Origin: Candidatus Woesearchaeota archaeon
Lineage (GTDB): Archaea > Nanobdellota > Nanobdellia > Woesearchaeales > DSVV01
Assembly: GCA_018303075.1 (NCBI GenBank)
Contig: JAGVYW010000003.1
Coordinates: 1,598-65,597, forward strand
Direction of reading: 5' to 3'
Length of the DNA stretch: 64,000 nt
Below are positions 1 through 51,430 of the stretch, in pieces. Within the stretch, counting starts at the first letter, position 1. Every line of letters starts with the position of its first letter. The position numbers and the translations under genes were made by a program. The notes beneath the pieces were generated by a model. It was given only the letters and a program-made list of their open reading frames with translations, was not told where the DNA came from and ran no database searches.

Positions 1-714
1 TGATATATGAAAGTCGTCAGAACCACTTAATATAGCGTTATCATAACCAACAATATTATGATAGACAAGATAATAATTCTTTCCTGGTTCTATTTGTTGA
101 GTATAGAATAAAAAAGGATTATATTTAAGATTATTAGTAAAATAAGAGTAATATTTTTTATCACTAAAAGGCATAGATGCTTGTGTCAAATAATCTACAA
201 ATAATCCCTCTGTTGTACCACCTAAAGAGATTGATTTTTGATTTTTTGTGCCTTCTATCTTTATTTGAGCACAAAACACGCACATATTATAGTAACTCAC
301 AGCTTTTCTATCAAATACAGCCCCTGTTGCTTCACCAAAGTTTTTCCAGCAGATTCTCATCCGTTCTGCTAATACTGGAAAAACTACCTGTGAGTTTAAT
401 GCTTTATATGAATCAACAATTATTTTTTTATTGCCATCTGCAATAGCTATAGGTGTTTTTTTTTGGTCAATCTCAAGATGATCTGGATAGAAACTAATAT
501 ATGTACGAGGGCATTCAATCGGCACAGGAGAAGAATCACCACCTAATATACCTACTTTTGTTGCCTTGTGAACAGCTGCTGTTGCTGCACATCTTTCATC
601 TTTTTCTTTTGAAAGCAGCTTTGCTAATAATGGAGCTTCAATTGAGAGCAATATTATCAAAGAAACAACTAGTATAATGATAGTATTAATCTTGGAAATA
701 CCTCTTTTCATCAT
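1..714 (-). CDS. secreted/membrane-anchored protein, partial (runs off window start); N-terminal signal-anchor MMKRGISKINTIIILVVSLIILLS
   Basis: Hand-translated minus-strand ORF open from ATG at 714/711 to position 1 (not in ORF track because no stop in window); hydrophobic N-terminus; preceded by the conserved leader motif shared with the pilin-like genes. Confidence 0.5.
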   Translation of the reverse strand, partial: MMKRGISKINTIIILVVSLIILLSIEAPLLAKLLSKEKDERCAATAAVHKATKVGILGGDSSPVPIECPRTYISFYPDHLEIDQKKTPIAIADGNKKIIVDSYKALNSQVVFPVLAERMRICWKNFGEATGAVFDRKAVSYYNMCVFCAQIKIEGTKNQKSISLGGTTEGLFVDYLTQASMPFSDKKYYSYFTNNLKYNPFLFYTQQIEPGKNYYLVYHNIVGYDNAILSGSDDFHIS

Positions 715-745
715 AAAAAACTTCACTCCGTTTGTTTTTTATTAT
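715..745 (-). promoter_or_regulatory. conserved TATA/operator/SD leader, copy A (gene orientation: ATAATAAAAAACAAACGGAGTGAAGTTTTTT-ATG)
   Basis: Near-identical to four other sites at 3948, 4299, 6753 and 7421, each immediately upstream of a minus-strand secreted-protein gene. Confidence 0.5.
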
Positions 746-1077
746 CTTGTATGTTTATTATAAACGCAATAGTTTTACAATACCATAAACAATCGACATC
801 AATATGATAAGTATTGCCATATATATGATTATTCTAACAATGGACGCTTTTTTATTCATAAAAACTTCACCTATAAAAGTCATAATCAGTACTGCAAATT
901 AATTTACGTTCAATTTTTTATTATTGGAAGCGATTGTATTTAAATGTAATGAGAATTTCATAAATTATTTAATTTGTATTTGTATGAGGTATAAACTTCA
1001 CAGTGATAACAAAAAATTTAAAAGTATCTTAGCTATTTTTATGTAATATTTTTAAAGTTGTAAATATTTCTTATCTT

Positions 1078-2718
1078 ATGATAAAAAGAAAAGATAGAGG
1101 ATTCTTAAGAGTTATTGATGGGTTTCGGAGTGATAAAAGCAGAAATGTTTTTGCTGCTCGTGAATTTACCACAATGTTATATGAAATTCAGGAAAGAAGA
1201 GAGGAAAGAATTGTTTCTAGCGAATATGCTGATATTCCTAATAAAGAAGAGAAGATGAGTATGCTTGAGAAAATGCTTCGCCATTATCCAGACAATCTTT
1301 GCATAAAGCTTTCTGCAGCAATTGATTATCTTGAGAGTAAAGAACATAAACATCTTGGACTGCTTGTATTAAGAGAGATTGAAGAAGCAATCACTATGAA
1401 TCCTATACTATTATCAGACCTGCATAATGAAGAGAGTTCTGTTGAGAGGATTGTTGAGGATGCAGATAATAATTTAGGTAATGCAGATCTACAGCTACGA
1501 AGATTGAATATTGCAAAACATTATCTTGATCTTTATAGAGTCATCTCATTAAAAAGTAATTCTCAAAAATTGTATGATATATTAATCAAAAGCTATGCTT
1601 ATGTCTTACTGCGAGATAATGATGCTGCTTTATCTCTCTTTAGGACTATTGAAGAAATACATCCTGACGCTATTTTCATCTATAATCTATATGCAAGAAG
1701 ACTGGAAGCAAGCAATTGCCATGAGGAAGCTGGAAAAAAAAGAGCATTGTTTTCCTCATGGGCATTGCATGACAGCAACACAATATTTGAACGTGTCTCT
1801 AATGCAATGAGAAGTGTATATAAACTAGGCAATGAAGCAGTTCCTGCTGTAAACAAGACATTGATCAGCATTAGAACAAAAAACAAGGATGAAATAAGTT
1901 ATGAACAAGGTGCAATCTTAAGAGCAAAAAGAATTGTACAAGATAATTATTGCTACAGAATAGTCGAGTCTGTACATACAGAATGTATTGATGGTGTGTA
2001 TTATCATGTGCTTAGAAGAAAAAGCGGAGATGTGCTGCTGTCTTTTCTCGAGAATGAGTATAATAAAAGCCAACAATTGCCCGTGCTATCTGAAATAATA
2101 AGATTCTTACAATTGCTGCAGTTTAATATGGGTATTGTAACTAAATGCAATAAGAAAGATTGTGAGAGTCTTGCAGCAAGTTTATCTGCAAGACTTGGCG
2201 GCAATAAAATAAGATTATCTACTGAAGTAAATGATTCAATTGCTGGGCTTTGCGAAAGCTTTCTTTCTGTTCCTATTGTTTATAATAAAGACAGCCATCC
2301 TGAGAATTGGATCATTGAAAAAGTTTATGGAACGCAAGAGATATACATAATCACTGCATTAGATTTTCAGAAAAAAACATCTGCACCCTGCGTATTTGAT
2401 ATTGCAAATCTATTGCGATACGGCAATTATATCTCTGAGAAAAATGAATCAGATTTATTAAGAGAATATTACATAAGAGGATGCAATAACTTGAGTTATC
2501 TAAATGATATAGATTATCAACAATTTCTTAATAGTTATTATGCTGGAGTTGTTTATAGAATGCTGTCTTTCTTTTGCGCATGGCAACATCCTAGAAAAGC
2601 TGGATATTATACCAGGATTCCTGTTGTATTGAATAATGCTGCTGCTGCAATTGACAAGGTTGAGGATAAACAATTTGATAAAGAAAGATTGAAAGAGCTT
2701 ATTTGTTCAATACGATAA
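1078..2718 (+). CDS. hypothetical cytoplasmic protein; C-terminal third carries protein-kinase-like/APH-type phosphotransferase motifs (YNKDSHPENWI catalytic-loop-like, IITALDFQ DFG-like)
   Basis: 546-aa ORF; motif resemblance to aminoglycoside/choline kinase fold (HxDxxxxN and DxD/DFG equivalents); family assignment is from memory of motifs only. Confidence 0.35.
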   Translation: MIKRKDRGFLRVIDGFRSDKSRNVFAAREFTTMLYEIQERREERIVSSEYADIPNKEEKMSMLEKMLRHYPDNLCIKLSAAIDYLESKEHKHLGLLVLREIEEAITMNPILLSDLHNEESSVERIVEDADNNLGNADLQLRRLNIAKHYLDLYRVISLKSNSQKLYDILIKSYAYVLLRDNDAALSLFRTIEEIHPDAIFIYNLYARRLEASNCHEEAGKKRALFSSWALHDSNTIFERVSNAMRSVYKLGNEAVPAVNKTLISIRTKNKDEISYEQGAILRAKRIVQDNYCYRIVESVHTECIDGVYYHVLRRKSGDVLLSFLENEYNKSQQLPVLSEIIRFLQLLQFNMGIVTKCNKKDCESLAASLSARLGGNKIRLSTEVNDSIAGLCESFLSVPIVYNKDSHPENWIIEKVYGTQEIYIITALDFQKKTSAPCVFDIANLLRYGNYISEKNESDLLREYYIRGCNNLSYLNDIDYQQFLNSYYAGVVYRMLSFFCAWQHPRKAGYYTRIPVVLNNAAAAIDKVEDKQFDKERLKELICSIR

Positions 2719-3613
2719 TTGATGCTGAAAAATCCGCAGTCTGTGTAAGAATCTGGCTGCAGATATTAAACAGAAACATCTCTGAGTGATTCCTTGCTTT
2801 GAAATTGATGAGTTCATTTTTTATTATCTCCTGCTGTTTGCTGATATGTGTAAGCTTCTCGAGAGAAAAATTGTAATAAAGATCATAATATAATGAAAAG
2901 AAAGAGTTTACTTTTTCAAACAAAGAAATTATTTCTTGAGATATCTGCTTGTCTTTATCATCCTGCTGTTCGAAATGGTTGCAGATGTATTTATAATTAT
3001 CACAGATTTTTTCTAAATTCCATAGAATAACATACAGAAAATTAGCTTTTTTGTATTCTATTATTCTATGCTTATTAAGGATGCGCTGGCAGAAGTTTGT
3101 CAGCTGATTGTTGAGAAGCTCTAGCTTTTTTGTCTGCTGAAAATTGTAATCTCTCTGTTTTATTTTTGCTGCAGTTTCATCTGCCATCTCTATTGTAACA
3201 CGAAATGCTCTCCTAAAAGAGTTATCAAACTGCTCCTGCTGCTCCTCTACAATTGCTGAGATTACTAATCTTTTTTCGGTTTTTTCTGTAATTGTGAATC
3301 CTGTAAATAAATCTTTGAGCAATTCATTAACTAATTGAAGCTGTTGAGTGTTGTTATAGAACAATTCTATTTCATCATAGCCAGACTTGTGCAGTGCAGA
3401 CAACAACCAGCGGATAACTCGATCATCAAGAGATTCAATCGAGACTGAGATGAACTGCCTGTTGTTCTTTACAGCTGCTGTTATAGTCAATTCATTGCTG
3501 TTTTCCTGAAGATTGAGTTCATCTCCTTTCTGCAGATTATATTTAGAAAGCCATGCTAATGGAAGCGTTATGACATAGGTTTTATCAGCAATCTTGATAA
3601 TCTTACGATACAT
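2699..3613 (-). CDS. AbrB/SpoVT-like N-terminal DNA-binding domain fused to helical PhoU-like region (putative regulator)
   Basis: N-terminus MYRKIIKIADKTYVITLPLAWLSKYNLQKGDELNL matches swapped-hairpin AbrB/MazE pattern; rest is helical, PhoU-like; converges on and overlaps previous gene by 20 bp. Confidence 0.35.
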   Translation of the reverse strand: MYRKIIKIADKTYVITLPLAWLSKYNLQKGDELNLQENSNELTITAAVKNNRQFISVSIESLDDRVIRWLLSALHKSGYDEIELFYNNTQQLQLVNELLKDLFTGFTITEKTEKRLVISAIVEEQQEQFDNSFRRAFRVTIEMADETAAKIKQRDYNFQQTKKLELLNNQLTNFCQRILNKHRIIEYKKANFLYVILWNLEKICDNYKYICNHFEQQDDKDKQISQEIISLFEKVNSFFSLYYDLYYNFSLEKLTHISKQQEIIKNELINFKARNHSEMFLFNICSQILTQTADFSASIIVLNK

Positions 3614-3647
3614 AGATATAGAAATGAAAGGTTATATATTAAAATAT

Positions 3648-3947
3648 TTATTTTAACAAAGGTATGCAACAAACTAAAGTATCATCTACTTCCTTAGTAC
3701 CTGGCTTTAAACAAACTCTTGATGGATCTGCTATATATCCTTCTGATTCTTTACAACCTACATTGAGTTCAACTCCTGCTGTTTTAGAATTACATTCTGC
3801 ACCTTGCACTGCTTTACATTCACTTAGATTTTTGTTGAATAATGCTAATCTTCCTGTAAAGATATATGTAATAACTACAAGAACAACAATTGCTATGATT
3901 GTAATGATCACAATATTTATTGAAAGGTCTGCTTTTCTTTTTATCAT
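3648..3947 (-). CDS. small (99 aa) Cys-rich secreted protein with pilin-like N-terminal signal/TM (MIKRKA|DLSINIVIITIIAIVVLVVITYIFTG), C-terminal CCxPL
   Basis: Basic N-terminus followed by ~25 hydrophobic residues, 8 Cys in the mature part; paralog of 4023..4298; conserved leader upstream. Confidence 0.6.
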   Translation of the reverse strand: MIKRKADLSINIVIITIIAIVVLVVITYIFTGRLALFNKNLSECKAVQGAECNSKTAGVELNVGCKESEGYIADPSRVCLKPGTKEVDDTLVCCIPLLK

Positions 3948-3978
3948 TAAAGACTCACTTCGTTTGTTTTTTATTGTT
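3948..3978 (-). promoter_or_regulatory. conserved TATA/operator/SD leader, copy B (GAACAATAAAAAACAAACGAAGTGAGTCTTTA-ATG)
   Basis: Alignment with copies A, C, D, E. Confidence 0.5.
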
Positions 3979-4022
3979 CTTAATTACTACAATATAAGAG
4001 AATAAAAAAATAGTAAAAATAA

Positions 4023-4298
4023 TTACTGTGCAAATGTTGGCAATGGCGAACAACAAGCATTGACTGTATCTGTGGAACTATCATCATTTAAGCAGACACG
4101 TGTTGAATCTTTGATGTAGTTTTCATCACAGTTTGGCCCCATATTACATCTATTGCCTTGTATTTTTAGACAGTCACTTAAGCCTTTGTTGAACAATGTA
4201 ATTCTTCCTGTAAAAATAAAGGTTATCAGAATTAATACAACTAATGCTATGACTGTAATGACTATTATATTTATTGATAAATCACCGTTCTTTTTCAT
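4023..4298 (-). CDS. small (91 aa) Cys-rich secreted protein, pilin-like N-terminus (MKKNG|DLSINIIVITVIALVVLILITFIFTG), C-terminal CCSPL; paralog of 3648..3947
   Basis: ORF track start 4313 is a GTG that reads the Shine-Dalgarno GTGAGGAGA as MRRFF; true ATG at 4298 lies 7 nt after GGAGA; ~65% identity to the neighbouring paralog over the N-terminal 45 aa. Confidence 0.6.
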   Translation of the reverse strand: MKKNGDLSINIIVITVIALVVLILITFIFTGRITLFNKGLSDCLKIQGNRCNMGPNCDENYIKDSTRVCLNDDSSTDTVNACCSPLPTFAQ

Positions 4299-4340
4299 AA
4301 AAAATCTCCTCACTTTGTTCGTTGTTTTTTAAGTATAGTT
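4299..4340 (-). promoter_or_regulatory. conserved TATA/operator/SD leader, copy C (CTATACTTAAAAAACAACGAACAAAGTGAGGAGATTTTTT-ATG)
   Basis: Alignment with copies A, B, D, E. Confidence 0.5.
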
Positions 4341-4439
4341 AGGTATATTAAACACAGTAAAATATACCTTGCTTTTGATTTTATTCAAAATGATTCTACT
4401 ACTATATAAATCTTTTTGAAATTTTTTCACGAAAAAATT

Positions 4440-5096
4440 TCAAATCTCAGGACATTCGCTGTTTATGCATAACCAAATCTCAACCACATTCATTGATGAA
4501 CCAGATAATGGCAAAATGTAGGGTTCGACACTTCCGGATGTTGCTGAGCTTAAGGTTTTCATTTTTTCCACATATTTCTCATCTGCTTCATCTGGGAGAG
4601 TGATAAATGGTTTTATAGCAGAATCACCACTAGTAACTTTCATCTCTAATTGATAAGGCATATTGAATTGACCAAGTGAATTATCAAATGAAGTTTGCAG
4701 TGCACATTTAAGATATTCATCTATCTTTTGTATATCTTTGCACTGCAGATTTTGGATTGATGATTGGTATTCTGCATCACATTGCATCATATTGTTTTTT
4801 GCAACTGCAACAATCAGATCCTCCATATCTGTGTCAGGCAAACAAAATGAGTTTGTTTTGAGAAATGCTGAAACCATACTTGAAGATAATTGCTGCTGAT
4901 TATATTCATCCAAAACTTTTGAAGACTTTTTGAAAAAAACAGTTGAAACTGTAAACATGATAATTAATGATATAATTATGAAAATGATTAATAATCCCAT
5001 GATTTCTGTTTGTGACTTTTTAGAAAATGGCTCAATGTGCAATTTTCTAAAGAGTTTTTTACTGTGATTCTTCGTGTTGTGTGTCTTTGCACTCAT
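4440..5096 (-). CDS. membrane-anchored secreted protein (218 aa), third gene of overlapping 3-gene operon; TM IMGLLIIFIIISLIIMFTVSTVFF
   Basis: Overlaps upstream gene by 4 bp; single N-terminal hydrophobic segment after a basic leader. Confidence 0.55.
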   Translation of the reverse strand: MSAKTHNTKNHSKKLFRKLHIEPFSKKSQTEIMGLLIIFIIISLIIMFTVSTVFFKKSSKVLDEYNQQQLSSSMVSAFLKTNSFCLPDTDMEDLIVAVAKNNMMQCDAEYQSSIQNLQCKDIQKIDEYLKCALQTSFDNSLGQFNMPYQLEMKVTSGDSAIKPFITLPDEADEKYVEKMKTLSSATSGSVEPYILPLSGSSMNVVEIWLCINSECPEI

Positions 5097-5659
5097 TTTG
5101 CTACCTCTATTCGAATGTAACCAAAACTGTATTGGTTTGTAATTGGATCATAAAATGTTATCGGCAAAAACATGCTATTAATGGATTTTACGTTTTTTAA
5201 CATATTGTCGAAAAGATTGTCTTTTTTTTCGATGGTTGTGTCAACTTCTTCTGAATTTTCTGAAGAAGCTGTATAGGTTGGATAAACTTCTTTTATTGAG
5301 ATCTTGACGTTTAGAAAGATGTTGTCATAGTATTGCTTAAATTTCTTGCTTTTATCTGAAGTATCCTCTAATCTACTCTTAAAGGCTTCAAACTTTAGCT
5401 TGTCAATGCAGTCAAATTCTTCAATTGCTGCTTGCGTGCAGATAAGTTCTGGCAATGATTTTACCTGCTGAGCAATCTTTAAGGTGTGGAGTTCTAACTG
5501 TTTCTTTTGTTCGTCTCCTGCAGAGATGCTTTGAATTTTAACATAGAAAACTGCACCAATTGTCACTAAAATGAAAAATATCATCAATACAAAGATTGTT
5601 TCTCCTATCTTTAGTTGAGATTTTCTTGTTAATAGTTTCATTAGTACAACCTCGGACAT
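5093..5659 (-). CDS. membrane-anchored secreted protein (188 aa), pilin-like N-terminus (KIG|ETIFVLMIFFILVTIGAVF)
   Basis: Overlaps flanking genes (19 bp and 4 bp); basic-G-E then hydrophobic stretch. Confidence 0.55.
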   Translation of the reverse strand: MSEVVLMKLLTRKSQLKIGETIFVLMIFFILVTIGAVFYVKIQSISAGDEQKKQLELHTLKIAQQVKSLPELICTQAAIEEFDCIDKLKFEAFKSRLEDTSDKSKKFKQYYDNIFLNVKISIKEVYPTYTASSENSEEVDTTIEKKDNLFDNMLKNVKSINSMFLPITFYDPITNQYSFGYIRIEVAK

Positions 5660-6732
5660 CTTCCACCTGGAGCTAAGAGAATCTCTTCATTGAGATCTTC
5701 AAGAGATTGCTTTGCTGCAACAGTAGCAGCAACATCACTTTCAATTTTTACATTAATGGTTGTTCCTAAATTGACATCACTGCCTAAATAATCATATGCG
5801 GTTTTATAATATACAGAACAATGACTTAATGAAGAATCATCTTTTAATTGCCAAGCTTTAAATTGATATAATGAACTAACATATTGGTAACGTTTAAAGG
5901 CTTTCAAAAGATTACATTGATAAACTAATTCATCTTCAGAAAAGATTACGCCAATTAATGTAGGAGTATCAAGATAATAGCTGCCATCTCCTTCTTTAAT
6001 ATTTTCAACTACTTTGTTATTCTTCTTTAATTTTGTAAATGAAAAGCTTCCAGATGGTTCTGGTCTTAACATAAGCACATCAATGTTTCTTGCTTCTTTT
6101 TCTTCTTTTATCTTATCTAACCATGAAGGAAGTTTTCCATCTTCTGAAATATAAATAAATCGCAACAGATACATATTATCAGGATATATTACTGAGGTTG
6201 CACTATTATCTAAAAATTCTACATTTAGAAATTGTGTTTCTGCCATCATACCATATAATTCCTTAGCAAATTGCTTGCTTTTGTCATCGTCATCAGCAAC
6301 AAAATAATAGTAAACATCATCTCTTGTGAGATAGAGCAAGTTGCTAACTTTAAATGGATAATTCCAGTCAAGCGTCCAGGTGATTAATTGTGATTTCTCA
6401 ATCTTTTTTGGAGAGAAGATTGGCAGAAATGCAGTGATTGGCAGAAATGCAGTGTCTTTAGCAATACCACTATCTCCTATCTCAATATTTGACTGACAAT
6501 TATTACCTTTGCATGAACATTCAAATGTTAATGCTGTGTCTTCGATGTTAATCTTGTTTGCTGATTTTGCTGCTTGAGATGCGCCAAGAATTGTTGTGTC
6601 AAGCTGCTGCAAAATGTTTGCGTTTATCTTGATCTCTTGGTTTGTCATGTATTTCTTTGCAATAACTATGAAAAAAACCAGAATAAGAGTACCAACTACT
6701 AAAATATAAATCCAATTGAGCTGCGCTTCCAT
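5641..6732 (-). CDS. membrane-anchored secreted protein (~363 aa), first gene of 3-gene operon; TM WIYILVVGTLILVFFIVIA; Cys-containing extracellular domain
   Basis: ORF track start 6768 again reads the SD as MRRFF; at the position homologous to the ATG of the other leader copies there is ATT (ATT ATA AAT AAG...); next ATG is 6732 (MEAQLNW). Confidence 0.55.
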   Translation of the reverse strand: MEAQLNWIYILVVGTLILVFFIVIAKKYMTNQEIKINANILQQLDTTILGASQAAKSANKINIEDTALTFECSCKGNNCQSNIEIGDSGIAKDTAFLPITAFLPIFSPKKIEKSQLITWTLDWNYPFKVSNLLYLTRDDVYYYFVADDDDKSKQFAKELYGMMAETQFLNVEFLDNSATSVIYPDNMYLLRFIYISEDGKLPSWLDKIKEEKEARNIDVLMLRPEPSGSFSFTKLKKNNKVVENIKEGDGSYYLDTPTLIGVIFSEDELVYQCNLLKAFKRYQYVSSLYQFKAWQLKDDSSLSHCSVYYKTAYDYLGSDVNLGTTINVKIESDVAATVAAKQSLEDLNEEILLAPGGRCPRLY

Positions 6733-6752
6733 AAATGCTTTCTTATTTATAA

Positions 6753-6791
6753 TAAAAAATCTCCTCACTTCGTTCGTCTATTTTTTAAACT
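6753..6791 (-). promoter_or_regulatory. conserved TATA/operator/SD leader, copy D (GAGTTTAAAAAATAGACGAACGAAGTGAGGAGATTTTTT-ATT)
   Basis: Alignment with copies A, B, C, E. Confidence 0.5.
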
Positions 6792-6843
6792 CAGTTAGTG
6801 TGATTGAACAACGTGAAATCGCTCAAAGTTCTTATTAAGTAAC

Positions 6844-7416
6844 TTAACTTGTTGTTGTTGACTTTATTGGTGGATTAGATACTTTTACTCCATTTCCTAA
6901 ACCTATAAATTTAACTTTTATCTCTCCAGCAATTGCTTTAAAACAGATTAATCCTGCAGAATCGTCAACTTTCATCTTTTCAACCAATAATGGATAATCA
7001 GGGACGAATGGAATTGTCATGACGTTCTGGTTTTTTCCAGTCTGCCATGCATCACATATTATTGGATCAACCATTTTCTTTTTATCAGCAGATATTAGTT
7101 GTGACCCTCCACCATCATTTCCACCACAGACAATAGATTTATTTGCTTTACTTGCACCTTCTTTAGATAAATCAAAGAAACAAACATACTGTACTTTTTT
7201 TGGTACAGGAATCTCTTCAATTGTCCATGAACCATATTTTGTGCTGTATTTTTTTGCTGTTGTTTCAAGCGATGTCTTTAAGCTCAGCAGATCAATATCT
7301 TCTGTTGTTTCCATCAATTTCATAATATATTTAACTCCAAAAAATAGGAGCATACCTATAATAACAATTCCTAAGATGTACATTAACATGTCTTGAACTT
7401 GTGCTTTCTTTTTCAT
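6844..7416 (-). CDS. secreted protein with archaeal class-III-like signal peptide (MKKKA|QVQDMLMYILGIVIIGMLLFF), 190 aa
   Basis: K-A-Q followed by hydrophobic helix matches the prepilin-peptidase substrate pattern; alternative start 7428. Confidence 0.55.
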   Translation of the reverse strand: MKKKAQVQDMLMYILGIVIIGMLLFFGVKYIMKLMETTEDIDLLSLKTSLETTAKKYSTKYGSWTIEEIPVPKKVQYVCFFDLSKEGASKANKSIVCGGNDGGGSQLISADKKKMVDPIICDAWQTGKNQNVMTIPFVPDYPLLVEKMKVDDSAGLICFKAIAGEIKVKFIGLGNGVKVSNPPIKSTTTS

Positions 7417-7420
7417 AATA

Positions 7421-7458
7421 AAAAACATCTCACTTTGTTCGTGTTTTTTATATACACA
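7421..7458 (-). promoter_or_regulatory. conserved TATA/operator/SD leader, copy E (GTGTATATAAAAAACACGAACAAAGTGAGATGTTTTTTATT-ATG)
   Basis: Alignment with copies A-D; clear TATA box TATATAAAAAA. Confidence 0.5.
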
Positions 7459-7471
7459 GTACCACGATTTT

Positions 7472-10400
7472 TTACTTCTTCACTTTCTTTCTCAATTCTT
7501 CAATCGCATTGCCTGACTTTCCTTTTACTGTCTTTGCTAATGCTGCGAATGGATCTTGTTTTGCTGCATCTTGCTTTGCTGCAGCTGGTTTTGCAGCAGA
7601 TTGCGGCGGGAATGATGATTTAGTCAGAGGTTGATTTAGTTTTCGATCAGTTGTTGTTGATTGCTTTGTTTGTGATTGTTGCGATACTGTTGTTTTTTCC
7701 TGCAGTTTTGGTGTATCTTTCTTTGCAGATAAACCTAATGAATCGAATTTGCTTAAAATATCTTCACGCTGTCTTTTTCTTAGCTCTTCTTTTTTCTTGC
7801 GCAATTCTGCTGACATAGGCATGAATCTTCCTGCAGATTGACGCGGGAATTGCTGCTGCGATGTGCTTAGAGGTTGTGACTGTGATTTTGAGCTTAATGG
7901 CGACAATTGCTGTGATGAAAATAACGACTTCTGCATAAATTTGATGTAATAATAATATCCTCCTCCACCTAATAAGATAAGGAATAAGAAAATTAGTAAG
8001 AGAATCGTACCTATGCCTGAGCTTTCTTCTTCTGGCTCTTCATCAAGTGATTCATCTGCTGGTTCTTGCCCTATTTCATCTCCTTCACATGCTTCACAGG
8101 ATTTTCCACCACAATCAATGTCTGCCTCATCACCATTTCTTTTGCCGTCAAAACATGATGGTTGAGTGCAAATATTTTTCTCGCAAGAATTTGTCGTACA
8201 ATCACTGTTGAAACTGCATGCTTTTCCTTTTTCACATGCATCGCATAATGTTCCACCGCAATCAATATCTGATTCATCTTGATTTAATATAGTATCTTCG
8301 CATGATGCTTTTTTACAAATATTGTTTAGACATTTTTTTGATGCACAGTCTGAGTCGTTTGTACAAGCGTTGTTATTGGAACATTTAGGACAATTGCCGC
8401 CACAATCTACACCTGACTCATTGATATCTTTCTTATTATTCTTACATAAATCAACTAAATCTGGTTTTCCAATAGTTACTAAACTTTCTGTACTTATTGT
8501 AACACCATCACTCGATGATACTTTCGAAGAAGTCAATCCAACATTGTTTGTTGCTTTTGCACTCCAATAATATTTAGTCTTGTTTAGCAATTTTAAACCT
8601 GAAACTGTAACTTTTGAATCTGTTGTATTTGCCCAACTAAAAACATCAGATGCTCCTTGTTTTGTACCTATTGCGAATTCATAGTATTTAATGCCAGATT
8701 CATTATCTTCATAATTAAACACTGCGCTTAGAGTGTCGAGACTGCTTGTGGTTATACCGTCGTCAATGCTTTTGAATAATGGAGCAGTTGTGTCAACGAT
8801 AAATGAATGGTAACCTAACATCAATTCATCTGCATTCATCAGTTTACAGCTGAAATAATAAGTATATTTTCCATCTTTGAAATCTTTTTCGTTTGATTCG
8901 TGATGTTTGTTTGCTTTATCTCCTTGTTTTGTTGTTGTTAAATTTTCTGTCAAACTATCTTCAATTTGACCAAAACTGCAGTATTCAACTTGCTTTTCTG
9001 TTTCAAGTATAATCTTATGCTTTTTTACTGACGTTAGTAATGGGGGAGATAAAAAGTTCATACCTATTCCATAACTTGTATCTACCTTAAATGTTAATGA
9101 TTTCTTTTCGCTAACGTATTTTGGATCTGTTAAACCATTGTCACACTGCACATAATAAGTGTAATCATCTTTACCATCTGACCTATCTTGTTTATCATCA
9201 ATCCTTTTTATATCTGCTGCAGGATATTCATTGCTTAGTTCTTCCTGATTTATAGTTTTTAATGGAATCTCACCATATCCTGGAAATTTATTGTTCATAT
9301 TAGAATAACTATAATCAGGCTGTCTTGTAAATTTACATTGTGTTAAGTCATCTGTTTTTACAACTAAATTTGTTTTTATTGGGAATTCTGTCAAGGCAGG
9401 AGGATCTTTGTTGTTGCTTGGATCAATTGTTAATGAAGTGATTATTGGAGTTGTATTGTCAAACACTAATAAGAATATCTGCTCTGCTTCTACTGAACCC
9501 TGCAAAAAACATTTTACATAGAATGTTTTTGGAATTCCCTGATCTGCGTCTGTTAATGTTATTTTTTCTGTAAATGTTTTTCCATTACCATTATTGAATT
9601 TATTAGATGGAACAAAGCTTTGCGATTGTGAATAGATACATTCTTTTGCTGTGATATCAAGAGATTCTTTTAGCTTAATCTTAAAATCAAAATCTGGCTT
9701 TTCAGAAATTCCATTAGATGGAGAAACTAATTGAATCAATTGCTCTTGTATTAATGTACGCAGGATGTAATATGATTTTGTTTCTTCAGCTCCAGATCTG
9801 TCAACAGCTGTAATTTTTACTTCATTTAAACCTTCAGCAAGATCAACTGTAATTGATAATTTTTCATTTGCTGGTTTTTCCTCAAAAAATACTGATTGAG
9901 CTGCATCAACACTGATAACTTCAACAGTTACTTTGTTGTTTGCAGGCGAATTTAATACTGCATCTGGATCTTCTATTGTTATCTCTAAATCATATGTTGA
10001 ACCATACCATTGCTTTGGGTTATCTGGAGTTGTAAATTGTGCAAGATAGTCAACGTCAATCTTTGGTGGAAGAGAATCAATCTGGAATTTAACACAATTC
10101 TTCTCTTCAAATAATCCTCCTTTGCCATCAATTACTTTCTCTTGTGATTTGTAGCAAAGCCATTGCTGTGATGCCTGTGAAAATGCTGCATCTATTGAAT
10201 AGATTGGATTGTAAATGTTTTCTTGTTTTGTTGGATCTGGTTCACAAAATGAGTTGCCTTCTGTGTTTTCAGTAATGCAAAAATATGTTTTGTCACAATC
10301 AAATCCTATTGCTGTTTGCCCAAAAAAAATGGACTTTGGATCATCTGAGCAGCTGAAGAATAATTTTTCTGCAATATCTGTTCCTTTGTAAAATAATGAT

Positions 10401-13400
10401 GTATCAAAAGGTTTTGCGTTAATATCTATAATTGTTGTTTTTGGCGCCTGCTTATCAAGCACAAATTGAATCTCATCTTCATGCTGTTGGCCATCAATTG
10501 TACATGAAATAGGATAGATGTATTCCTTGCTTTCACTTAGTGTTATCTTTGAAGAATATTTGTATGCTTTTCCTTCTGGAATCTCTATTTCTTGAGTTTC
10601 TTGGAATGCTGTGCCGCCAACTGTACAATCTGCTTCTGCCAATGTTGTTGCTTCTAATGTGATCTCACCATTGTCTAATATTCCTGTTGGCTGTACATTC
10701 TGGATCATCAAATCTGCATCTACTTTGAGCAAGAAAGAAGTCTCTCCTTTATTACCTAATGAATCTGTGCAAGAAACTGTGTATCTGTAAACTCCATCCT
10801 CTAAATTATTGTATTTTACCTGGAAAGCTTTGCCTGTGTCAATATCAATCTCACTGTTCTGATTATTCTCAAACTTATCTGTACATGTTGCTTCTTCATC
10901 TAATGTTACTGTTATCACAACACTTGATTCTATGTATGGATAGTCAGTATCAGGAATCACTTGATATTTCATAGTTATTTCAGGAGGTTTTCTGTCAACA
11001 TCTATTACTGCAGATTGAACTTCTTCAAGATTATCTGAATAATCAACTGAATAATAATATAGATTGTATAACCCATGATCAATTGGCAATGTAAATTGTT
11101 TGTCTGGTTCTGGTTTGTAGAGTTTGTCTGGATAACATTGAGGGTTAGTTGTTTTGTTATAACAGTAATATGTTTCTTTCAATCCACTTGATGGACGTCC
11201 TCGTACTGAGTCATCTGTCACTGAAAATAATAAATCAACTGTTCTTGTCTTTAATAGTGTCAACAGAATTGTTTTAGGAGGTGTGATGTCTAAAACATTG
11301 CCTAACATCTTATCACCTGGATCTTGAAATCCATCACCATCTGCATCTTTGTAACAATTCCAATCATAATTCTTTGAAGTGTTCCAGTAACATGTAGGAA
11401 TGTTCATGAAATTTATGCTTGGGGTAGTTATTTTATTTGTGCCAGAGATTCTTTTTCCATCTTTGTACTGCACGCCAATTTCTGATTGATCTCCACCATG
11501 ACATTCTTCTGATGTTAGAAAATCAGTGCAAGCGACTTCTGGTTCTGGCGAGCAGACGAAATCATTGACAGCAGTGCCTGCTTTGTAACATTTTGTTTGT
11601 TCTGAACTGAATTTTTTGCATTTGTTAACGTCACAATAATCAAAGATTGCATTGAATGATGATTGTTCACATTGGCTGCAAATATTGAAGTCTATGTTTG
11701 TTTCCTTGCAGATACCTATCCCTAACTCTGGATAAAGCATTGACCATTCACAGTCTCGTGTCAGACATTTGTTGTTAAATGCAACGTCTTTGTTTGTGTT
11801 TTTTAATGCTGAACATGATTCCTTGGTTTTGTAATCTGAACAAACATCAACACTCTTACACTCTTCAAATGCATCTTTGACTGTCTTTGTTGATTCATAA
11901 TAACATAATGGCACTTCCATGCAATCTTTTCCATTAAAATCATCATCATCATTTATTAATTTACTTTGTTTTGATGCATACATATTGAAAGGATTGCCGC
12001 AGAAGATGCAAGCGCTTTGATAGACGCAACTTGCAAATCCTTTTTCATCTGGACCATAGCAATATTTATTTGGACCTTGTTTTTCACAGAATGTATCTCC
12101 TGGATCATTTTTTCCTTTTGATTTTAACTGATTCTTTTCATCACAAGAATATATCTCTGTATCATAAGTTGTAAAATCTTTTAAAGGGGTTTTAATACAG
12201 AACTCTGAACCTTGTTTGTATGGTGTTATCAAACAAATTTCACTACCTGAACTTTCACAGACTACGTCTGAATCTATTTTTTTAGTTGTTTTGGGATAAT
12301 TTGCCCGCACTACATAACAATAGTTTTTGTTTGCTTCAATCTTATTATCAATTAAATCAGGTGAAAGAGTATTTTCAATATTAGGTGACCATTTACCTGT
12401 ATCTGCTGTTGCAGGTGTTAAACAATCTTCTTTTGTGCCAATACAACGAAGTAATGTTACAGGTACAGGACAATTTTTTATGTCATAATTAATGATAATC
12501 TCTTTTTTACCTGCAATATGATTTATTTTTGTGATTGTAAATGGTTTTGAGCTTGTTGCATCCTGACAAGCTGGACATTCATCACAAGAATCTGGAATAC
12601 CGTCTTTATCACAATCGTTTGATTCACCTGTACAGCATACCCAGAAATTGTTCACTGATTTGATATATTTTGCATAAGTTTTTGTTGAAACTTTACAAGC
12701 TGCAGGCCAAGTATCTGGAGATTTTGTTGGAGTTGTTGAATCATCACATTTTAAACCATTGCATTCAATATCTTCACAATCTATCTGCGAGTTATCGTTG
12801 TTATCAATGCCATCATTACAAATTTCTGTTTTTGGGCAGTTTTCTAGTTTAATTTCATCACCATATTTGCCATTTTTACATTCGATAACCTCCTGGCAAC
12901 CATCATCGTCAATACTAACTGCTAACTTGTCACCATCTTTACAATCTTTTGGCGGTTGATCTTCACATTTCTTTCCAATATATGAATCTTGTTTATCATA
13001 ACAGTATTTGCCAGCGCCACATTTCTTACCACCGCAATCACAATCTGTATCTGGCTTTGTTAAGCAAGTAGATAAGCCAAGCTCTGAATTCATTGCTTTT
13101 GAAGTACAATCTTGATCATTGCTTGCATCTGACCCATAATCTGTTTTTCCATCATCATCATTATCAATGCCGTCATCACAAGCAGTGCCTGTTTTTGGAG
13201 CTGTTGCATCTTTTTCCTGCTTACAATAATCCACACAATTTGCTGCAGTGTATGAATTATATTTATCATTGTCTTCAATGAGTGATTTTTTATTGAATAC
13301 ACCAACTTTATCATCTTCACAAAATTTTATTGATACGTCAAATTCTGCTCCAATTTGAGAATTAGATGCAGTATAACAGCAGCAACCTAACTCGCAAATC

Positions 13401-14310: not shown

Positions 14311-14352
14311 TAAATGTATTTTTCGAATTTACCGCAAAAAACTAGTTGGTTA

Positions 14353-40870: not shown

Positions 40871-41749
40871 TTATAGTTTTTCTGCAATAATATCAGCAAC
40901 ACTTATCTTGTTTGTTTTATGCACTATTGTGTTTGTTGTGATTATTTCTTTATAATATTTTTTTAATTTAGGATAACAATTGTCTGCAAATATACCATGT
41001 ACTACAATTGCTGCAAGATTGTTGTATCCTTTGTTTCTGAAAAATTTTCCAATATATAATAAAGTGACACCACTACTGATGATATCGTCAATTATTATTA
41101 TTTTCTGAGTTTTTGGAATCTGTTCAAGCTCTTTTGTGGTGTAAATCTTTACTTTTGTTCCACTATAGCGAACTTTGTTAAGTATAATTGCTTTTGCTCC
41201 AATGTTGTCTGCTATTGTTTTTGCCCATTGGTATGATTCACCATCAGGACCAATTATAAATGGAGATTTATAATTTTTTCTGATATAATTTTCAATATTT
41301 TTTATTGCTGTAAGAGTTACTGTTTTTGTGGTATATACTTGACTTAATTTTTTAATCCTATGCAAGTGCGGGTCAATTGTAATAAGTTTGTCAATATATC
41401 TTGATAGTAGTTGTGCAATTATTTTTGCAGAAATACCCTGACCTCGTTTGAATTGTCTGTCTTGGCGCATGTAACAAAGGTAAGGTGCAATCAAAGTTAT
41501 TTTTTGTGCACTATTATTTTTACATGCTTCACAAGTAAAAATAATATCAATTAATTTTTGGTTTGGTTCATTGAGTGAAGCAATGAGAATAACTTCAGCG
41601 TTTTTTACTTGTGTTGGTATTGTTATAATTGTTTCTTGATCTGGAAGTGTTGTTTTATTCACTATAAATATAGGTAATTTTTTGATTTTTGAAATTTCTT
41701 TTGCTAGAGAAAGAGAATAATCAAAACTCAATAAGATTTTTTTCATCAT
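40871..41749 (-). CDS. prs: ribose-phosphate pyrophosphokinase (PRPP synthase)
   Basis: PRPP-binding IIIDDIISSGVTLL and N-terminal Prs core. Confidence 0.8.
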   Translation of the reverse strand: MMKKILLSFDYSLSLAKEISKIKKLPIFIVNKTTLPDQETIITIPTQVKNAEVILIASLNEPNQKLIDIIFTCEACKNNSAQKITLIAPYLCYMRQDRQFKRGQGISAKIIAQLLSRYIDKLITIDPHLHRIKKLSQVYTTKTVTLTAIKNIENYIRKNYKSPFIIGPDGESYQWAKTIADNIGAKAIILNKVRYSGTKVKIYTTKELEQIPKTQKIIIIDDIISSGVTLLYIGKFFRNKGYNNLAAIVVHGIFADNCYPKLKKYYKEIITTNTIVHKTNKISVADIIAEKL

Positions 41750-41799
41750 AAAAATTTCACTTCTTTCAATTTTTACAGGTTATAGCTACGAACTTCTTA

Positions 41800-46617: not shown

Positions 46618-47655
46618 ATGTTAACTGTTAAAGTTTTATTGCGAGATGCTGAGAAAGTAAAACAGTATCTGTTTGAGAAGAAGCTTTTTGATAATAGATT
46701 TGTTTTAGAAAGAGATAAAGAATATATCTATTTCCCTATAATAAAAAAATTTAGTCACTTCGTTCCTAAGATTTTTTTATCATTTCAAGAAAGAAGAGAT
46801 AAACTTAAAATATGTCAAGAACATGATCTGCGAAAAGTTCTTGAGAAAAAACTTACAAAAAAAGAATTAGAACATCTTAAGACTGCATTTGATATTGTTG
46901 GAGATATTGCTATTCTTGAAATTGATGATCAGCTTGTTAAAAAGCAAAAGCTTATTGCTAAAACAGTTTTGATATTGCATAGCAATATCAAAACTGTTGT
47001 AAAGAAGAAAGGAGAGCATAAAGGAAAATTGCGGATACAAGAACATATTTATTTAGCAGGAGAAAAAAAGTTTGAAACAATCCATAAAGAAAATGGTGTG
47101 TTGCTGAAGCTTGATATCAATAAAGTATATTTCTCTCCAAGAATGGCTTCTGAAAGAAAAAGAATAATGGAGCAGGTGAAAAAAGGAGAAACTGTGCTTG
47201 TTATGTTTTCTGGGATTGGGCCATACTGCTGTGTGTTTGGAAAAAATAGTCTGGCTAAAGAAGTTTATGGTATTGAATTGAATAAAGCTGGGCATAAGTA
47301 TGCAATTGAGAATGTGCAGCTGAATAAATTACAAAATGTCATGCTGTTACAAGGAGATGTGCATAATGTTGTTAAGAAATTTGTTGCAGAGAAGAAAGTC
47401 TTTGACAGAATATTGATGCCTTTACCAAAAGGAGCAGAAGACTTTTTATCAGATGCGTTAGCAGTTGCACATAAAAATACAATTATACATTTTTATGACT
47501 TTTTGTACGAGAAAGATTTTGACAAAGCTTTACGGAAGATTGAAAAATCTTGCAAGAAAGCGAAGAAAAAATATAAAATATTACGATTAGTAAAGTGCGG
47601 ACAGCATTCTCCGTATGTGTTTAGAATATGCGTTGATTTTCAATTGCTTGGGTAA
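46618..47655 (+). CDS. trm5: tRNA (m1G37) methyltransferase Trm5/Taw22 family
   Basis: Class I MTase MFSGIGPY, Met-10+ like architecture. Confidence 0.7.
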   Translation: MLTVKVLLRDAEKVKQYLFEKKLFDNRFVLERDKEYIYFPIIKKFSHFVPKIFLSFQERRDKLKICQEHDLRKVLEKKLTKKELEHLKTAFDIVGDIAILEIDDQLVKKQKLIAKTVLILHSNIKTVVKKKGEHKGKLRIQEHIYLAGEKKFETIHKENGVLLKLDINKVYFSPRMASERKRIMEQVKKGETVLVMFSGIGPYCCVFGKNSLAKEVYGIELNKAGHKYAIENVQLNKLQNVMLLQGDVHNVVKKFVAEKKVFDRILMPLPKGAEDFLSDALAVAHKNTIIHFYDFLYEKDFDKALRKIEKSCKKAKKKYKILRLVKCGQHSPYVFRICVDFQLLG

Positions 47656-51345: not shown

Positions 51346-51430
51346 TTTTTGCGACTTAATTTTTGCGAATTCACTTCGTTCATTCAGCAAAAATTATCAT
51401 AGGGAGAGAAGGAAAGATAGGGAATTAGTT

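Follow-up and report, generated by a model that had tools for sequence, protein, structure and literature searches.

A capped A/T-stem hairpin at gene boundaries of a Woesearchaeota archaeon, possibly a dispersed REP-like element co-opted as a Shine-Dalgarno-bearing leader

Introduction

The family of the capped hairpin reported here can be likened to REP/BIME elements in dispersal and turnover; it might also be called a "mobile leader cassette", where "mobile" refers solely to flanks that copies share and to their presence or absence among relatives. RNA motifs that contain G·A pairs are bound by proteins of the L30e family. The capped hairpin matches no Rfam family and nothing in the papers searched. 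We analysed a window of 64,000 nucleotides from a Candidatus Woesearchaeota archaeon (contig JAGVYW010000003.1), in which an earlier note had recognised five near-identical blocks upstream of pilin-like genes and read them as a surface-protein regulon, with a TATA box, an operator and a Shine-Dalgarno site.

Results

All five blocks are present on the minus strand at the positions given in the earlier note, each directly 5' of an ORF (n = 5). At up to two mismatches, ACGAACRAAGTGAG has six matches against 0.45 expected, a count reached in none of 100 shuffles, and ACGRAGTGAR has four exact matches against 0.09 expected; the view that the blocks are homologous and non-random is supported. They fall into two length classes, a short form (S1, 715-745; S2, 3948-3978) with the sequence ATAAAAAAC-AAACGRAGTGAR and a long form (S3, S4 and S5) reading TAAAAAAY..ACGAACRAAGTGAG(GAGA)TTTTTT. 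The near-identity noted earlier is real, but S2 is degenerate and S4 has ATA at the ATG-equivalent position; similarly, the 14-mer core described as invariant is so only in S3-S5 and differs in the short forms. The MRRFF N-termini were correctly explained as the block motif translated from GTG.

S1 (713..742, minus strand) has a 9-bp stem, ATAAAAAAC/GTTTTTTAT, and the loop AAACGGAGTGAA; it starts 12 nt from the upstream stop codon, and its 3' arm continues into the ATG at 714-712 (RNA fold -4.5 kcal/mol, z -2.3; CM R1 score 18.9 bits). S2 (3948..3978, minus strand), adjoining the ATG at 3947, retains the cap AAACGAAGTGAG with its 3' arm decayed to a CTTTA spacer, has neither stem nor stable fold, and scores 16.5 bits. 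In S3 (4298..4331, minus strand; 51.1 bits), the stem TAAAAAA/TTTTTTA carries the cap ACGAACAAAGTGAG followed by GAGA, placing GGAG 7 nt 5' of the ATG at 4298-4296. S4 (6753..6787, minus strand; 50.3 bits) combines the stem TAAAAAAT/ATTTTTTA with the cap ACGAACGAAGTGAG and GAG, followed by ATT ATA where S5 carries ATT ATG; the next ATG is 18 nt downstream, and the gene probably starts at a non-ATG codon (ATT 6753 or ATA 6750). S5 (7418..7451, minus strand), with a 10-bp stem ATAAAAAACA/TGTTTTTTAT and the cap ACGAACAAAGTGAG, begins about 20 nt past the stop codon of a 2047-aa gene (RNA fold -6.4 kcal/mol, z -3.0; 40.3 bits). A sixth copy, S6, lies on the same contig about 1.3 kb past the left end of the window (L002 15273-15318); its cap is identical to that of S4, and it lies inside an operon, overlapping the preceding gene at its stop codon.

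The genes 3' of S1 to S5, all on the minus strand, occupy 1..714 (259 aa in full, extending off the window; N-terminus MMKRGISKINTIIILVV), 3648..3947 (99 aa; MIKRKADLSINIVII), 4023..4298 (91 aa; MKKNGDLSINIIV), 5641..6750 (the ortholog in the syntenic relative R2 begins MKKKAMIEVQMNW) and 6844..7416 (190 aa from ATG 7416, or 194 aa from ATG 7428). The label "pilin-like" is read off the N-termini only, which do consist of a short basic leader, K/R-G/A and a hydrophobic helix, but none of the pilin models of Pfam/NCBIfam matches these proteins. The S2 and S3 genes are clear paralogs, whereas the S1, S4 and S5 proteins are unrelated except for a signal-peptide-like N-terminus.

The A-run that had been read as a TATA box pairs with the T-run to form a stem, and the pairs that close it co-vary, occurring as C-G, UC/GA, CA/UG, AU/AU and UUU/AAA in nine Woesearchaeal copies. 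In these nine copies alone, pairing reaches 85.5%, compared with 44-56% when the partners are slid. In a set of 35 capped hairpins drawn from many taxa, paired cells make up 72% versus 40-46% for slid partners, and the covariation score is 0.263 versus at most 0.15, a value reached by 0 of 500 shuffles. The core, ACGAAC(G/A)AAGTGAG, is a self-folding cap with a C-G pair, tandem G·A, A-U and C-G pairs and a GAA triloop, and its sequence is conserved far more strongly than that of the stem. Variants of the cap keep the fold, with A5-U11 changed to G-C (L131 10796) and C2-G14 to U-A (51382) or G-C (46766), and the loop varies among GAA, GGA and GTA. Nearest-neighbour energies are weak: as RNA, only S1 and S5 among S1-S6 beat shuffles, with z near 0 for S3, S4 and S6. 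Upstream of S3, a pyrimidine-rich box TTTTACTGTGTTTA (4349..4362, minus strand) is an imperfect inverted cap copy complementary to the cap (RNAduplex -7.9 kcal/mol versus -4.5 for shuffles, p = 0.03), and S4 has a corresponding box, TTCACGTTGTTCA (6805..6817, minus strand; -11.6 versus -5.8 kcal/mol, p = 0.016). Such complementarity is significant in six of nine archaeal copies.

Ordinary promoters of this genome carry the TATA element TTTATATA 19-30 nt (median 22) 5' of leaderless ATGs, and the earlier claim that the blocks differ from a generic promoter is borne out. Among 60 window genes, 18 have TTTATATA (at most one mismatch) at this distance, two of them with a Shine-Dalgarno-like motif, which is found in 18 of the remaining 42, all block genes included. 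The proposed Shine-Dalgarno element does have the right spacing to the start codon: the cap's 3' strand (GUGAGGAG or GUGAGGUG) doubles as this putative site 6-8 nt before the AUG, its pairing with the rRNA being predicted from other genes (GGTGA, GAGGT). A canonical promoter, TTTATATAGTAGT (4398..4410, minus strand), lies about 110 nt 5' of the S3 start codon and is not followed by an ATG at the spacing of leaderless genes, implying a leader of about 85 nt that contains the hairpin. The ortholog L077 and L127 share this promoter 60-110 nt upstream, also without a leaderless ATG, and in L127 it stands 5' of a glycosyltransferase gene. The fallback reading of the earlier note, a conserved 5' UTR, fits best.

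Cap-like hairpins also occur in the window outside the pilin-like cluster, some of them inverted. The copy at 51357..51396 (minus strand) has a 10-bp stem, TAATTTTTGC/GCAAAAATTA, with four further pairs and the cap TGAACGAAGTGAA (RNA fold -11.8 kcal/mol, z -3.0); its minus-strand cap makes it inverted relative to its plus-strand neighbours, an AsnC-type gene ending 12 nt before it and a decarboxylase gene starting 35 nt after it. It is kept at the orthologous site in R2 with an A-T to G-C compensatory change. A doubtful copy at 46741..46780 (minus strand), within a Trm5-like coding sequence, has the arms ATAAAAAAAT/ATTTTTTTAT and the cap AGGAACGAAGTGAC, in which the C2-G14 pair is flipped to G-C (CM R1 score 32.3 bits, E = 0.0015; fold z -5.0); aligned with homologs, the protein has no insertion there, and the copy is not present in the DNA of relatives. 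A degenerate short-form copy, TAAAAATT-GAAAGAAGTGA-AATTTTTA (41749..41775, minus strand; fold z -2.7), adjoins the ATGATG start of a PRPP-synthase-like gene. Inverted copies stay at a distance from start codons; the genes there have their own Shine-Dalgarno sites. Other gene ends carry plain A-run/T-run hairpins, at 56964-56986 and 4415-4444. No transposase was found in the window and no target-site duplication was seen at the copies.

The distribution in relatives does not follow surface proteins, contrary to the proposed regulon. In the sister Woesearchaeote J, the element precedes the genes for L30e, S7 and rpoA', a membrane-protein gene after secY and a ParA-like gene, and in another Woesearchaeal genome, it precedes a glycosyltransferase gene and L30e. 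By the earlier note's own terms, its regulon would be refuted by absence of the block from orthologous loci in relatives, and such absence is observed: the block is missing from these loci in L132, a more distant, syntenic relative in which the pilin-like genes stand in the same order, and from the S2 ortholog in J. The S1 ortholog in J keeps the stem with GGAGGAG in the loop. In R2, the S3 ortholog has a plain GAGGTGA at the same place, and those of S5 and S4 overlap the genes upstream of them, indicating one operon. A 40-nt 5' extension is common to S4 and the L30e copy in J, and L077 and L127 share a different one. Unexpectedly, A/T hairpins with an identical cap also occur in CPR bacteria, Ruminococcus-type MAGs, Bacteroidota and Altiarchaeum, although these cross-phylum matches were picked by an exact 14-mer and carry that ascertainment bias.

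Discussion

The reading we favour, with about even confidence, is that the blocks are copies of a palindromic, REP-like element dispersed over gene boundaries and co-opted as a leader that supplies a Shine-Dalgarno site, and do not define a pilus regulon. The element would comprise an A-run/T-run stem of 7-10 bp and a purine-rich conserved mini-hairpin cap, 5'-C-GA-AC-GAA-GU-GA-G-3', predicted to form a C-G pair, two sheared G·A pairs, A-U and C-G pairs and a GNA triloop, often with a putative inverted degenerate cap copy 15-30 nt upstream. Transcription would include it in the RNA ahead of the downstream gene, either as part of the leader or between cistrons. Where the purine strand is sense and a start codon adjoins, as would apply at all five sites, the cap 3' strand (GUGAGGAG, GUGAGGUG or GUGA) would serve as the Shine-Dalgarno site, with the weak A/U stem terminating at the AUG; the block genes would need this site because they, unlike most genes of the genome, are not leaderless. 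The hairpin and U-run may also mark or attenuate the 3' end of the upstream transcript, or shield an mRNA end. Copies would be independent of gene function, in a dispersed family with fast turnover between relatives, and the five blocks would thus represent local spread in a cluster of small, individually translated genes.

A tentative alternative, which we consider unlikely, is a transcription boundary module, in which the hairpin and T6-7 terminate the upstream gene and the A-run provides the TATA element for a downstream transcript with almost no leader; an ancestral operon would then have been divided into separate units where the element inserted. Consistent with this, most copies begin 0-50 nt from an upstream stop codon (as S1, S5, S6 and the 51357 copy do), the R2 orthologs of the same genes overlap where the element is missing between them, and in CPR bacteria the capped hairpin and U-run directly follow rpoC, tRNA genes and other genes. 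The plain A-run/T-run hairpins at gene ends fit as well, and an orientation-independent function would suit inverted copies. However, perfect Shine-Dalgarno motifs occur in the loop or at its 3' side exactly where the element adjoins an ATG, as GGAGGAG in J and as GAGGAG or GAGGUG in seven of nine long-form copies, whereas the L014 copy, which does not adjoin a start codon, has GAGAAG and a separate downstream GGGTGA. Moreover, S3-type copies sit in leaders driven by canonical promoters, and in some inverted copies the stem is not followed by a T-run (J 4346).

Rather doubtful is the proposal that the tandem-G·A/GNA cap is bound by a trans-acting factor, which could be an RNA-binding protein (e.g. 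of the L7Ae/L30e family) or a complementary RNA, and which would adjust how a broad set of genes is translated or how stable their mRNAs are; the pyrimidine box could then compete for the cap from within the leader, which would switch between two states. The stronger conservation of the cap than of the stem, the element's position 5' of L30e in two genomes and the G·A binding of that protein family all favour this, as does the box-cap complementarity, matched in CPR elements by the loop of the last hairpin being the best partner in eight of nine cases. Yet the cap has no 3-nt bulge and is therefore not a K-turn, both orientations occur, cap-box covariation is demonstrated in a few cases at most, and an identical cap in bacteria and archaea would demand a universal partner.

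The earlier proposal, in which the A-run is a TATA box and ACGAACRAAGTGAG an operator before the transcription start, bound by a shared factor that co-regulates the pilin-like genes, now appears improbable. The A-run spacing is TATA-compatible (26-27 nt in long forms; 19-20 nt before the ATG in short forms, a leaderless geometry), TATAAAAAA and TTTAAAAAA are plausible TBP sites, and S5 carries a near-canonical TGTATATA 19 nt before the in-frame ATG 7428; by such spacing, S1, S2 and S5 may act as promoters. A candidate factor, of the AbrB DNA-binding type, is encoded by the AbrB/PhoU-like gene (2699-3613) within the cluster, which is syntenic in relatives, but R2 retains this gene while its orthologous pilin-like loci lack the block. 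The core is an asymmetric, purine-purine-mismatched hairpin cap found in both orientations, not a duplex dyad, and the arms co-vary as a stem. Canonical promoters stand further 5' of S3 and its homologs (80-110 nt for S3 and its ortholog), S6 lies across a stop codon, the block is also found ahead of ribosomal, RNA polymerase, ParA-like and glycosyltransferase genes, and bacteria, which do not possess TBP, carry the identical cap.

Finally, that the similarity has no function and was left by recent tandem duplication, or by gene conversion between the 5' ends of paralogs, within one gene cluster is very improbable and already disfavoured, since, despite the S2/S3 paralogy and the confinement of the five sites to 7 kb of one strand, S2 and S3 bear different block forms, the otherwise unrelated S1, S4 and S5 genes have the block in common, and further copies, with stem changes that compensate each other, are found at unrelated genes and in other genomes.

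Repeated leader blocks and further copies

All five leader blocks proposed in the earlier note (S1-S5; 715-7458, minus strand) are present, each directly before an ORF, and the MRRFF starts of predicted ORFs are indeed the block translated from GTG. Within the window, ACGAACRAAGTGAG with at most two mismatches occurs six times (0.45 expected), and exact ACGRAGTGAR occurs four times (0.09 expected). The blocks take a short form (S1 and S2), ATAAAAAAC-AAACGRAGTGAR, and a long form (S3-S5), TAAAAAAY..ACGAACRAAGTGAG(GAGA)TTTTTT, and carry a purine-rich core, hereafter the cap, which is an invariant 14-mer in S3-S5. A sixth copy (S6), located ~1.3 kb past the left end of the window on the same contig, carries the same cap as S4, overlaps the preceding stop codon and is followed by a 43-aa ORF. 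Further copies lie at 51357-51396 (inverted, after an AsnC-type gene) and at 41749-41775 (at the start of a PRPP-synthase-like gene). About eight copies occur in the 64-kb window, and about five in a 20.7-kb locus (L131) of the sister genome JACRKF01. Both orientations are found among copies. The purine strand of all copies lies on the minus strand although the probable oriC lies between them, a sample too small to weigh heavily; because this strand stays the same on both sides of the probable oriC, there is no replichore flip among these few copies, and a replication-strand bias was rejected.

A doubtful copy at 46741-46780, inside a Trm5/Taw22-like CDS, consists of a 10-bp A/T stem with the cap variant AGGAACGAAGTGAC and encodes IIKKFSHFVPKIFLS. 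Insertion into the CDS in the manner of RPE elements was ruled out, as close homologs share both the residues and the length. The DNA of relatives at this site has no hairpin; the structure reflects either chance or in-place conversion. Upstream of S1 lies a 33-aa hydrophobic ORF (760-930, minus strand), preceded in the sister genome (L131, 9838-9879) by the leader TTGAACGAAGTGAGTTTTTTATG; in the window the same cap is interrupted by a 36-nt insert, TTGAACG[...]GTGAAGTTTTTATG. Plain A/T palindromes without a cap occur at gene ends at 4415-4444 (TTTGAAATTTTTT-cacg-AAAAAATTTCAAA) and at 56964-56986 (AAAAAATTGC-ttt-GCAATTTTTT, followed by gaggtgaatataATG), so hairpins of this A-run/T-run kind may mark gene boundaries throughout this genome.

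Covariation supports a stem topped by a conserved cap

The segment previously read as a TATA box and the downstream T-run are the two arms of one stem, and their pairing is borne out by compensatory changes. The arms read ATAAAAAAC...GTTTTTTAT in S1 and S5, AAAAAAT...ATTTTTT in S4 and AAAAATTT...AAATTTTT in S6, and the sister genome has AAAAAATC/GATTTTTT, AAAAAAAC/GTTTTTTT and AAAAAACA/TGTTTTTT. Across nine Woesearchaeal long-form copies, 85.5% of cells were paired versus 44-56% with the partner arm slid, and four pairs were altered on both sides; across 35 copies from many taxa, the corresponding values were 72% and 40-46%, with a covariation score of 0.263 versus at most 0.15, reached by none of 500 shuffles. 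A compensatory change from A-T to G-C also separates the copy at 51357 from its ortholog in a more distant syntenic groundwater relative (R2).

The predicted cap fold comprises A1-U15, C2-G14, the G3·A13 and A4·G12 pairs, A5-U11 and C6-G10, closed by the triloop G7-A8-A9. The long form contains an extra purine tier (C-GA-C ... G-GA-G), and this second tier explains 'GTGAGGAG'. Cap variants that keep the fold include A5-U11 to G-C (L131, 10796), C2-G14 to U-A (TGAACGAAGTGAA) or to G-C, and loops of GGA or GTA. Nearest-neighbour energies are modest: as RNA, S1 (z -2.3) and S5 (z -3.0) are the sole copies that fold better than shuffled sequences, S3, S4 and S6 being no better than shuffles and S2 having lost the stem, so that the structural case for the energy-weak copies rests on covariation. 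Thermodynamics was dropped as a stand-alone discriminator, since energy fails to single out S2, S3, S4 and S6. In addition, the 5' extensions contain a pyrimidine box that corresponds to a cap variant in reverse complement and is significantly complementary to the cap in six of nine copies; because this box is an inverted cap variant, the element units form inverted pairs resembling BIMEs.

Ordinary promoters and a probable Shine-Dalgarno site

Ordinary promoters of the window look different from the blocks. The consensus TTTATATA (at most one mismatch) lies 19-30 nt (median 22) before the ATG in 18 of 60 window genes, a leaderless geometry, and only two of these 18 have a motif resembling a Shine-Dalgarno (SD) site. 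Among the remaining 42 genes, 18 carry GGTGA, GAGGT or AGTGA 4-14 nt upstream, including the L34e gene, the PRPP-synthase-like gene and all block genes, which thus belong to an SD-led minority. The A-run of the blocks, (A/T)TAAAAAA, is located 19-20 nt (S1 and S2) or 26-27 nt (S3-S6) before the start, to be compared with the window consensus TTTATATA, and a near-canonical TGTATATA overlaps S5 only.

The main rival explanation is a transcription-level module, a terminator plus a TATA box, that yields near-leaderless mRNAs; it may hold for S1, S2 and S5. The A-run spacing in S1 and S2 and the near-canonical element at S5 are compatible with it; the covariation of the arms as a stem and the different appearance of ordinary promoters speak against the A-run as a TATA box. 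Several observations place the element in leader or intercistronic sequence that is probably transcribed, among them the overlap of S6 with a stop codon. In S3, a canonical promoter, TTTATATAGTAGT, lies 110 nt upstream (80 nt in the sister-genome ortholog), with no ATG at leaderless distance, and the same promoter-plus-leader arrangement precedes a glycosyltransferase gene in another genome.

The fallback offered in the earlier note, a conserved 5' UTR with an SD site, is supported by these observations. AGGAG, GAGGUG or GUGA lies 6-11 nt upstream of the start in S1-S6 and, judged by the general archaeal anti-Shine-Dalgarno sequence, would pair with the 3' end of the 16S rRNA. Where the hairpin abuts an ATG with its purine strand in sense, positions 15-17 are GAG or GUG and complete AGGAG or GAGGUG. 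A single long-form copy is set apart from its start codon (locus L014 of the sister genome); it reads AAG at these positions, and GGGTGA occurs as a separate motif before its gene. Where copies are inverted, 14-40 nt separate them from start codons, and the genes concerned have their own SD sites. Because of this pattern, the 3' strand of the cap probably serves as the working SD site of S1-S6. The gene after S4 has ATA where the S5 gene has ATG (ATTATAAATAAG versus ATTATGAAAAAG; 6730-6753, minus strand), a base identical in four independent assemblies. Since its ortholog in R2 begins MKKKAMIEVQMNW, this gene likely uses a non-ATG start (ATT, ATA, or GTG at 6768).

Turnover of the element among relatives

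The gene order in R2 is the same as in the window, with the giant protein followed by proteins of 190, 356, 196, 191, 91 and 100 aa and then an AbrB-like gene. No block was found at any ortholog in this R2 locus (L132): the orthologs of the S5 and S4 genes each overlap the gene before them, and at the S3 ortholog a plain TATA precedes 'aaaaaatcGAGGTGActgcaATG'. The sister genome retains the stem (ATAAAAAC/GTTTTTAT) at its S1 ortholog, with GGAGGAG in the loop, and lacks the block at the S2 ortholog (L077). The AbrB-like gene of the window (2699-3613, minus strand), located inside the pilin-like cluster and syntenic in both relatives, is regulator-like, with an AbrB/MazE-type N-terminal domain and a weakly PhoU-like remainder; it lacks a capped hairpin and is preceded by a separate canonical promoter of the leaderless kind.

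Elsewhere in the sister genome, the element, or its short form in a T-run/A-run stem, precedes the genes for L30e, S7, rpoA' and a membrane protein (the last next after secY) as well as a ParA-like gene, and in a third genome it lies upstream of the L30e, S7 and glycosyltransferase genes. These contexts, along with the empty ortholog sites in L132 and L077, speak against the proposed operator of a coherent gene set conserved at orthologs, and against a pilus or surface-protein regulon. As for the pilin-like character of the downstream proteins, a K/R-G/A-x motif and a hydrophobic helix are visible by eye, but none of them matches a Pfam or NCBIfam pilin model; a homolog search with the 91-aa protein returned only that protein.

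Because the copy at 51357 is kept at the same site in R2, the family predates the split between the window's organism and R2, with a later expansion in the lineage shared with the sister genome. A 40-nt extension is common to S4 and the L30e copy, another to L077 and the glycosyltransferase copy, and a third kind is found on S3 although it is the ortholog of L077; judged by these extensions, subfamilies cut across gene identity.

Nature of the element and its likeness to known systems

These genes are best read as preceded by a REP-like element, a capped hairpin that would have been co-opted as their leader. The element forms a repeat family that sits at gene boundaries, has a stem and cap backed by covariation, lacks gene-set specificity and turns over between relatives. 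Transcription would pass through the element, whose hairpin and U-run could possibly play an extra role in ending or protecting the upstream transcript, and its copies have presumably dispersed. For this window, the tempting but wrong inference that a novel operator controls a regulon devoted to pili falls away. It gives place to a testable view of the way in which internal or leadered genes obtain a ribosome-binding site in an ultra-compact archaeal genome whose genes are mostly leaderless. As in archaeal SD-led leaders, including those of window genes with GGTGA or GAGGT, the blocks place a purine-rich GGAG, GGUG or GUGA 6-11 nt before the start of genes without leaderless TATA geometry. Unlike them, the putative SD site here lies in a conserved 14-nt self-folding cap between complementary A and U runs, and the whole unit is near-identical at unrelated genes.

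REP and BIME sequences are bacterial repetitive extragenic palindromes moved by RAYT transposases. The present element resembles them as a short, imperfect, intergenic or intercistronic palindrome that is probably co-transcribed, occurs in many copies, in both orientations and in inverted pairs, and differs among close relatives. However, no aligned copy has a GTAG/CTAC head, a Pfam scan of ~40 of the ~60 window ORFs found no RAYT or other transposase domain, and the apex rather than the hairpin foot is conserved; this apex is found in several phyla and in both domains, while any one REP family is confined to a species. Correia/NEMIS, RUP, ERIC and RPE-type elements, together with the 'mobile promoters' whose propagation was reportedly described by Matus-Garcia et al. 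in 2012, are similar in being ~75-130-nt units with an inverted repeat pair, sometimes a promoter, that lie before non-homologous genes and vary in presence among relatives. In contrast to a Correia-like MITE, no target-site duplication or defined termini were seen at the copies, the sole intragenic copy is not an insertion, and the units are far smaller than most MITEs; filled and empty sites in relatives indicate replacement rather than clean insertion, with an inverted cap pair present.

Intrinsic terminators and archaeal oligo-T signals share the hairpin followed by U5-7 right after stops or tRNA genes (CPR), as at several window genes, but the stems here are near-pure A-U, the apex is conserved, and the U-runs of the window stop at the AUG of the following gene, within operons. 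The apexes C-GAA-G, C-GGA-G and C-GTA-G and the CGAA/UGAG tandem G·A step recall the GNA-triloop or d(GCGAAGC) mini-hairpins and the (Py-GA-Pu)2 tandem sheared G·A motifs reportedly characterized by Hirao, Chou, Reid and co-workers. That work on oligonucleotides describes the motifs in physico-chemical terms, and the AAA-loop variant of S3 and S5 does not fit GNA; we know of no family of genomic repeats that combines these features. K-turns and K-loops (bound by L7Ae or L30e) likewise have tandem sheared G·A pairs beside a Watson-Crick stem, and one copy precedes the L30e gene, but the G·A loop of the predicted fold is a symmetric 2x2 one without a 3-nt bulge, so that the defining geometry is absent. 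Along with the K-turn, by-eye comparison discarded hammerhead domain II, SECIS, integron attC and the Gram-positive LexA box (CGAAC), whose defining features are missing. TIGR-Tas systems, raised by the association with CPR, have regular dual-spacer guide arrays with CCA and UG box motifs beside a Nop-domain gene (PMC12045711); their motifs and architecture differ from those found here, and the window has neither an array nor a Nop-domain gene.

Searched up to E = 10, Rfam yielded nothing at the blocks, and at 38 related loci it yielded only tRNAs. A full-text literature search for the 14-mer and its complement returned only an unrelated insect primer, and keyword searches returned nothing on such elements in CPR or Woesearchaeota.

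Recurrence of the cap across two domains

When 185,579 species genomes were scanned for ACGAACRAAGTGAGNNNNTTTT, at least 116 loci (at least 119 matches) came up, with ~35 expected by chance. About as many matches as chance expects (~35) lack any hairpin context, and the remainder, among the matches listed, group into families. Cap-bearing lineages comprise DPANN and Altiarchaeal archaea, at least 10 CPR/Patescibacteria genomes, Ruminococcus/Oscillospiraceae MAGs and Bacteroidota; one Cloacimonadota MAG and one Bacteroidota MAG are among the genomes matched. Ca. Altarchaeum has dozens of copies in 48-nt tandem hairpin units, and one Bacteroidaceae MAG has more than 20, many at contig ends. In CPR, the capped hairpin with its U-run directly follows an upstream gene or tRNA and opens a three-hairpin unit of 120-250 nt (forward cap, variable hairpin, inverted cap) that takes up the intergenic space and ends 3-8 nt before the ATG of recA, ruvC, rplP, rplK, nusA or dnaG. 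A phage origin was rejected, as IMG/VR gave only six matches, about the chance level, and viral contigs were not enriched.

In Ruminococcus/Oscillospiraceae MAGs, co-varying 16-bp stems containing G+C lie inside ~600-nt ORF-less elements that also carry an inverted cap. These elements (L024, L025, L064, L067, L103 and others) are conserved across several species, are bounded by GCGCAATTCACA / TGTGAATTGCGCC inverted repeats, and contain a long capped hairpin followed 150-250 nt on by an inverted-cap hairpin (TCGCTTCGCTC), with no Rfam match. The cap forms the apex of long multi-tier hairpins on several contigs of the Cloacimonadota MAG (L048, L105 and L112) and the Bacteroidota MAG (L055, L073 and L121-123), with nested stems beginning AAACAGC, AAAACC and CTGCTTC, followed in L048 by tandem 'agaaagtgctt' repeats. 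Metagenome contig Ga0209098_1000255 (L126/L129) has ~168-nt tandem units beside a tRNA-Ser gene, each opening with a capped A/T hairpin, with the variant cap GCAAACGTAGTGAGC in alternate units and ~100 nt of conserved sequence with small hairpins after each.

One exact hairpin cap, unrecorded in Rfam, recurs at gene boundaries of CPR, DPANN and some gut Firmicutes and Bacteroidota, and this cross-domain recurrence is the part worth pursuing. We tentatively consider, as a rather doubtful reading, that the cap C-GA-RC-GNA-GY-GA-G on an A/T stem defines an undescribed small gene-boundary family of two domains, either a new kind of mobile palindrome passed among episymbiont lineages or a universal structural module recognised by a conserved factor. 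Should the copies all belong to a single family, they would represent one of the rare non-coding elements found in both domains, and would offer access to the gene expression or genome dynamics of organisms that are not yet culturable.

Source and other features of the window

The archaeal source is reflected in the window's MCM, PolD DP2 and DP1, Orc1/Cdc6 and TBP genes, a GC content of ~31% and one protein carrying its NCBI name from Candidatus Woesearchaeota archaeon, and the locus occurs in several independent assemblies from groundwater samples. The region 7472-21506 encodes a set of unannotated proteins (2047, 1213, 521, 396 and 196 aa) that are very large, rich in Cys and predicted to lie at the surface; they match hardly any known family, and for the giant one there are weak Ig-like matches only. 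Two small pairs resemble toxin-antitoxin systems: a PIN-domain gene with an 84-aa partner (25058-25683), and overlapping 80-aa and 113-aa genes without a family match (13730-14310). A probable replication origin is located at 39480-40000, beside the orc1/cdc6 gene (38285-39493), where an ORB-like inverted pair, ACCCCTTGAGTTCCGATGGAA (39550-39570) and TTCCATAGGAACTCAAGGGGT (39907-39927), surrounds a very A+T-rich stretch filled with TATA palindromes.
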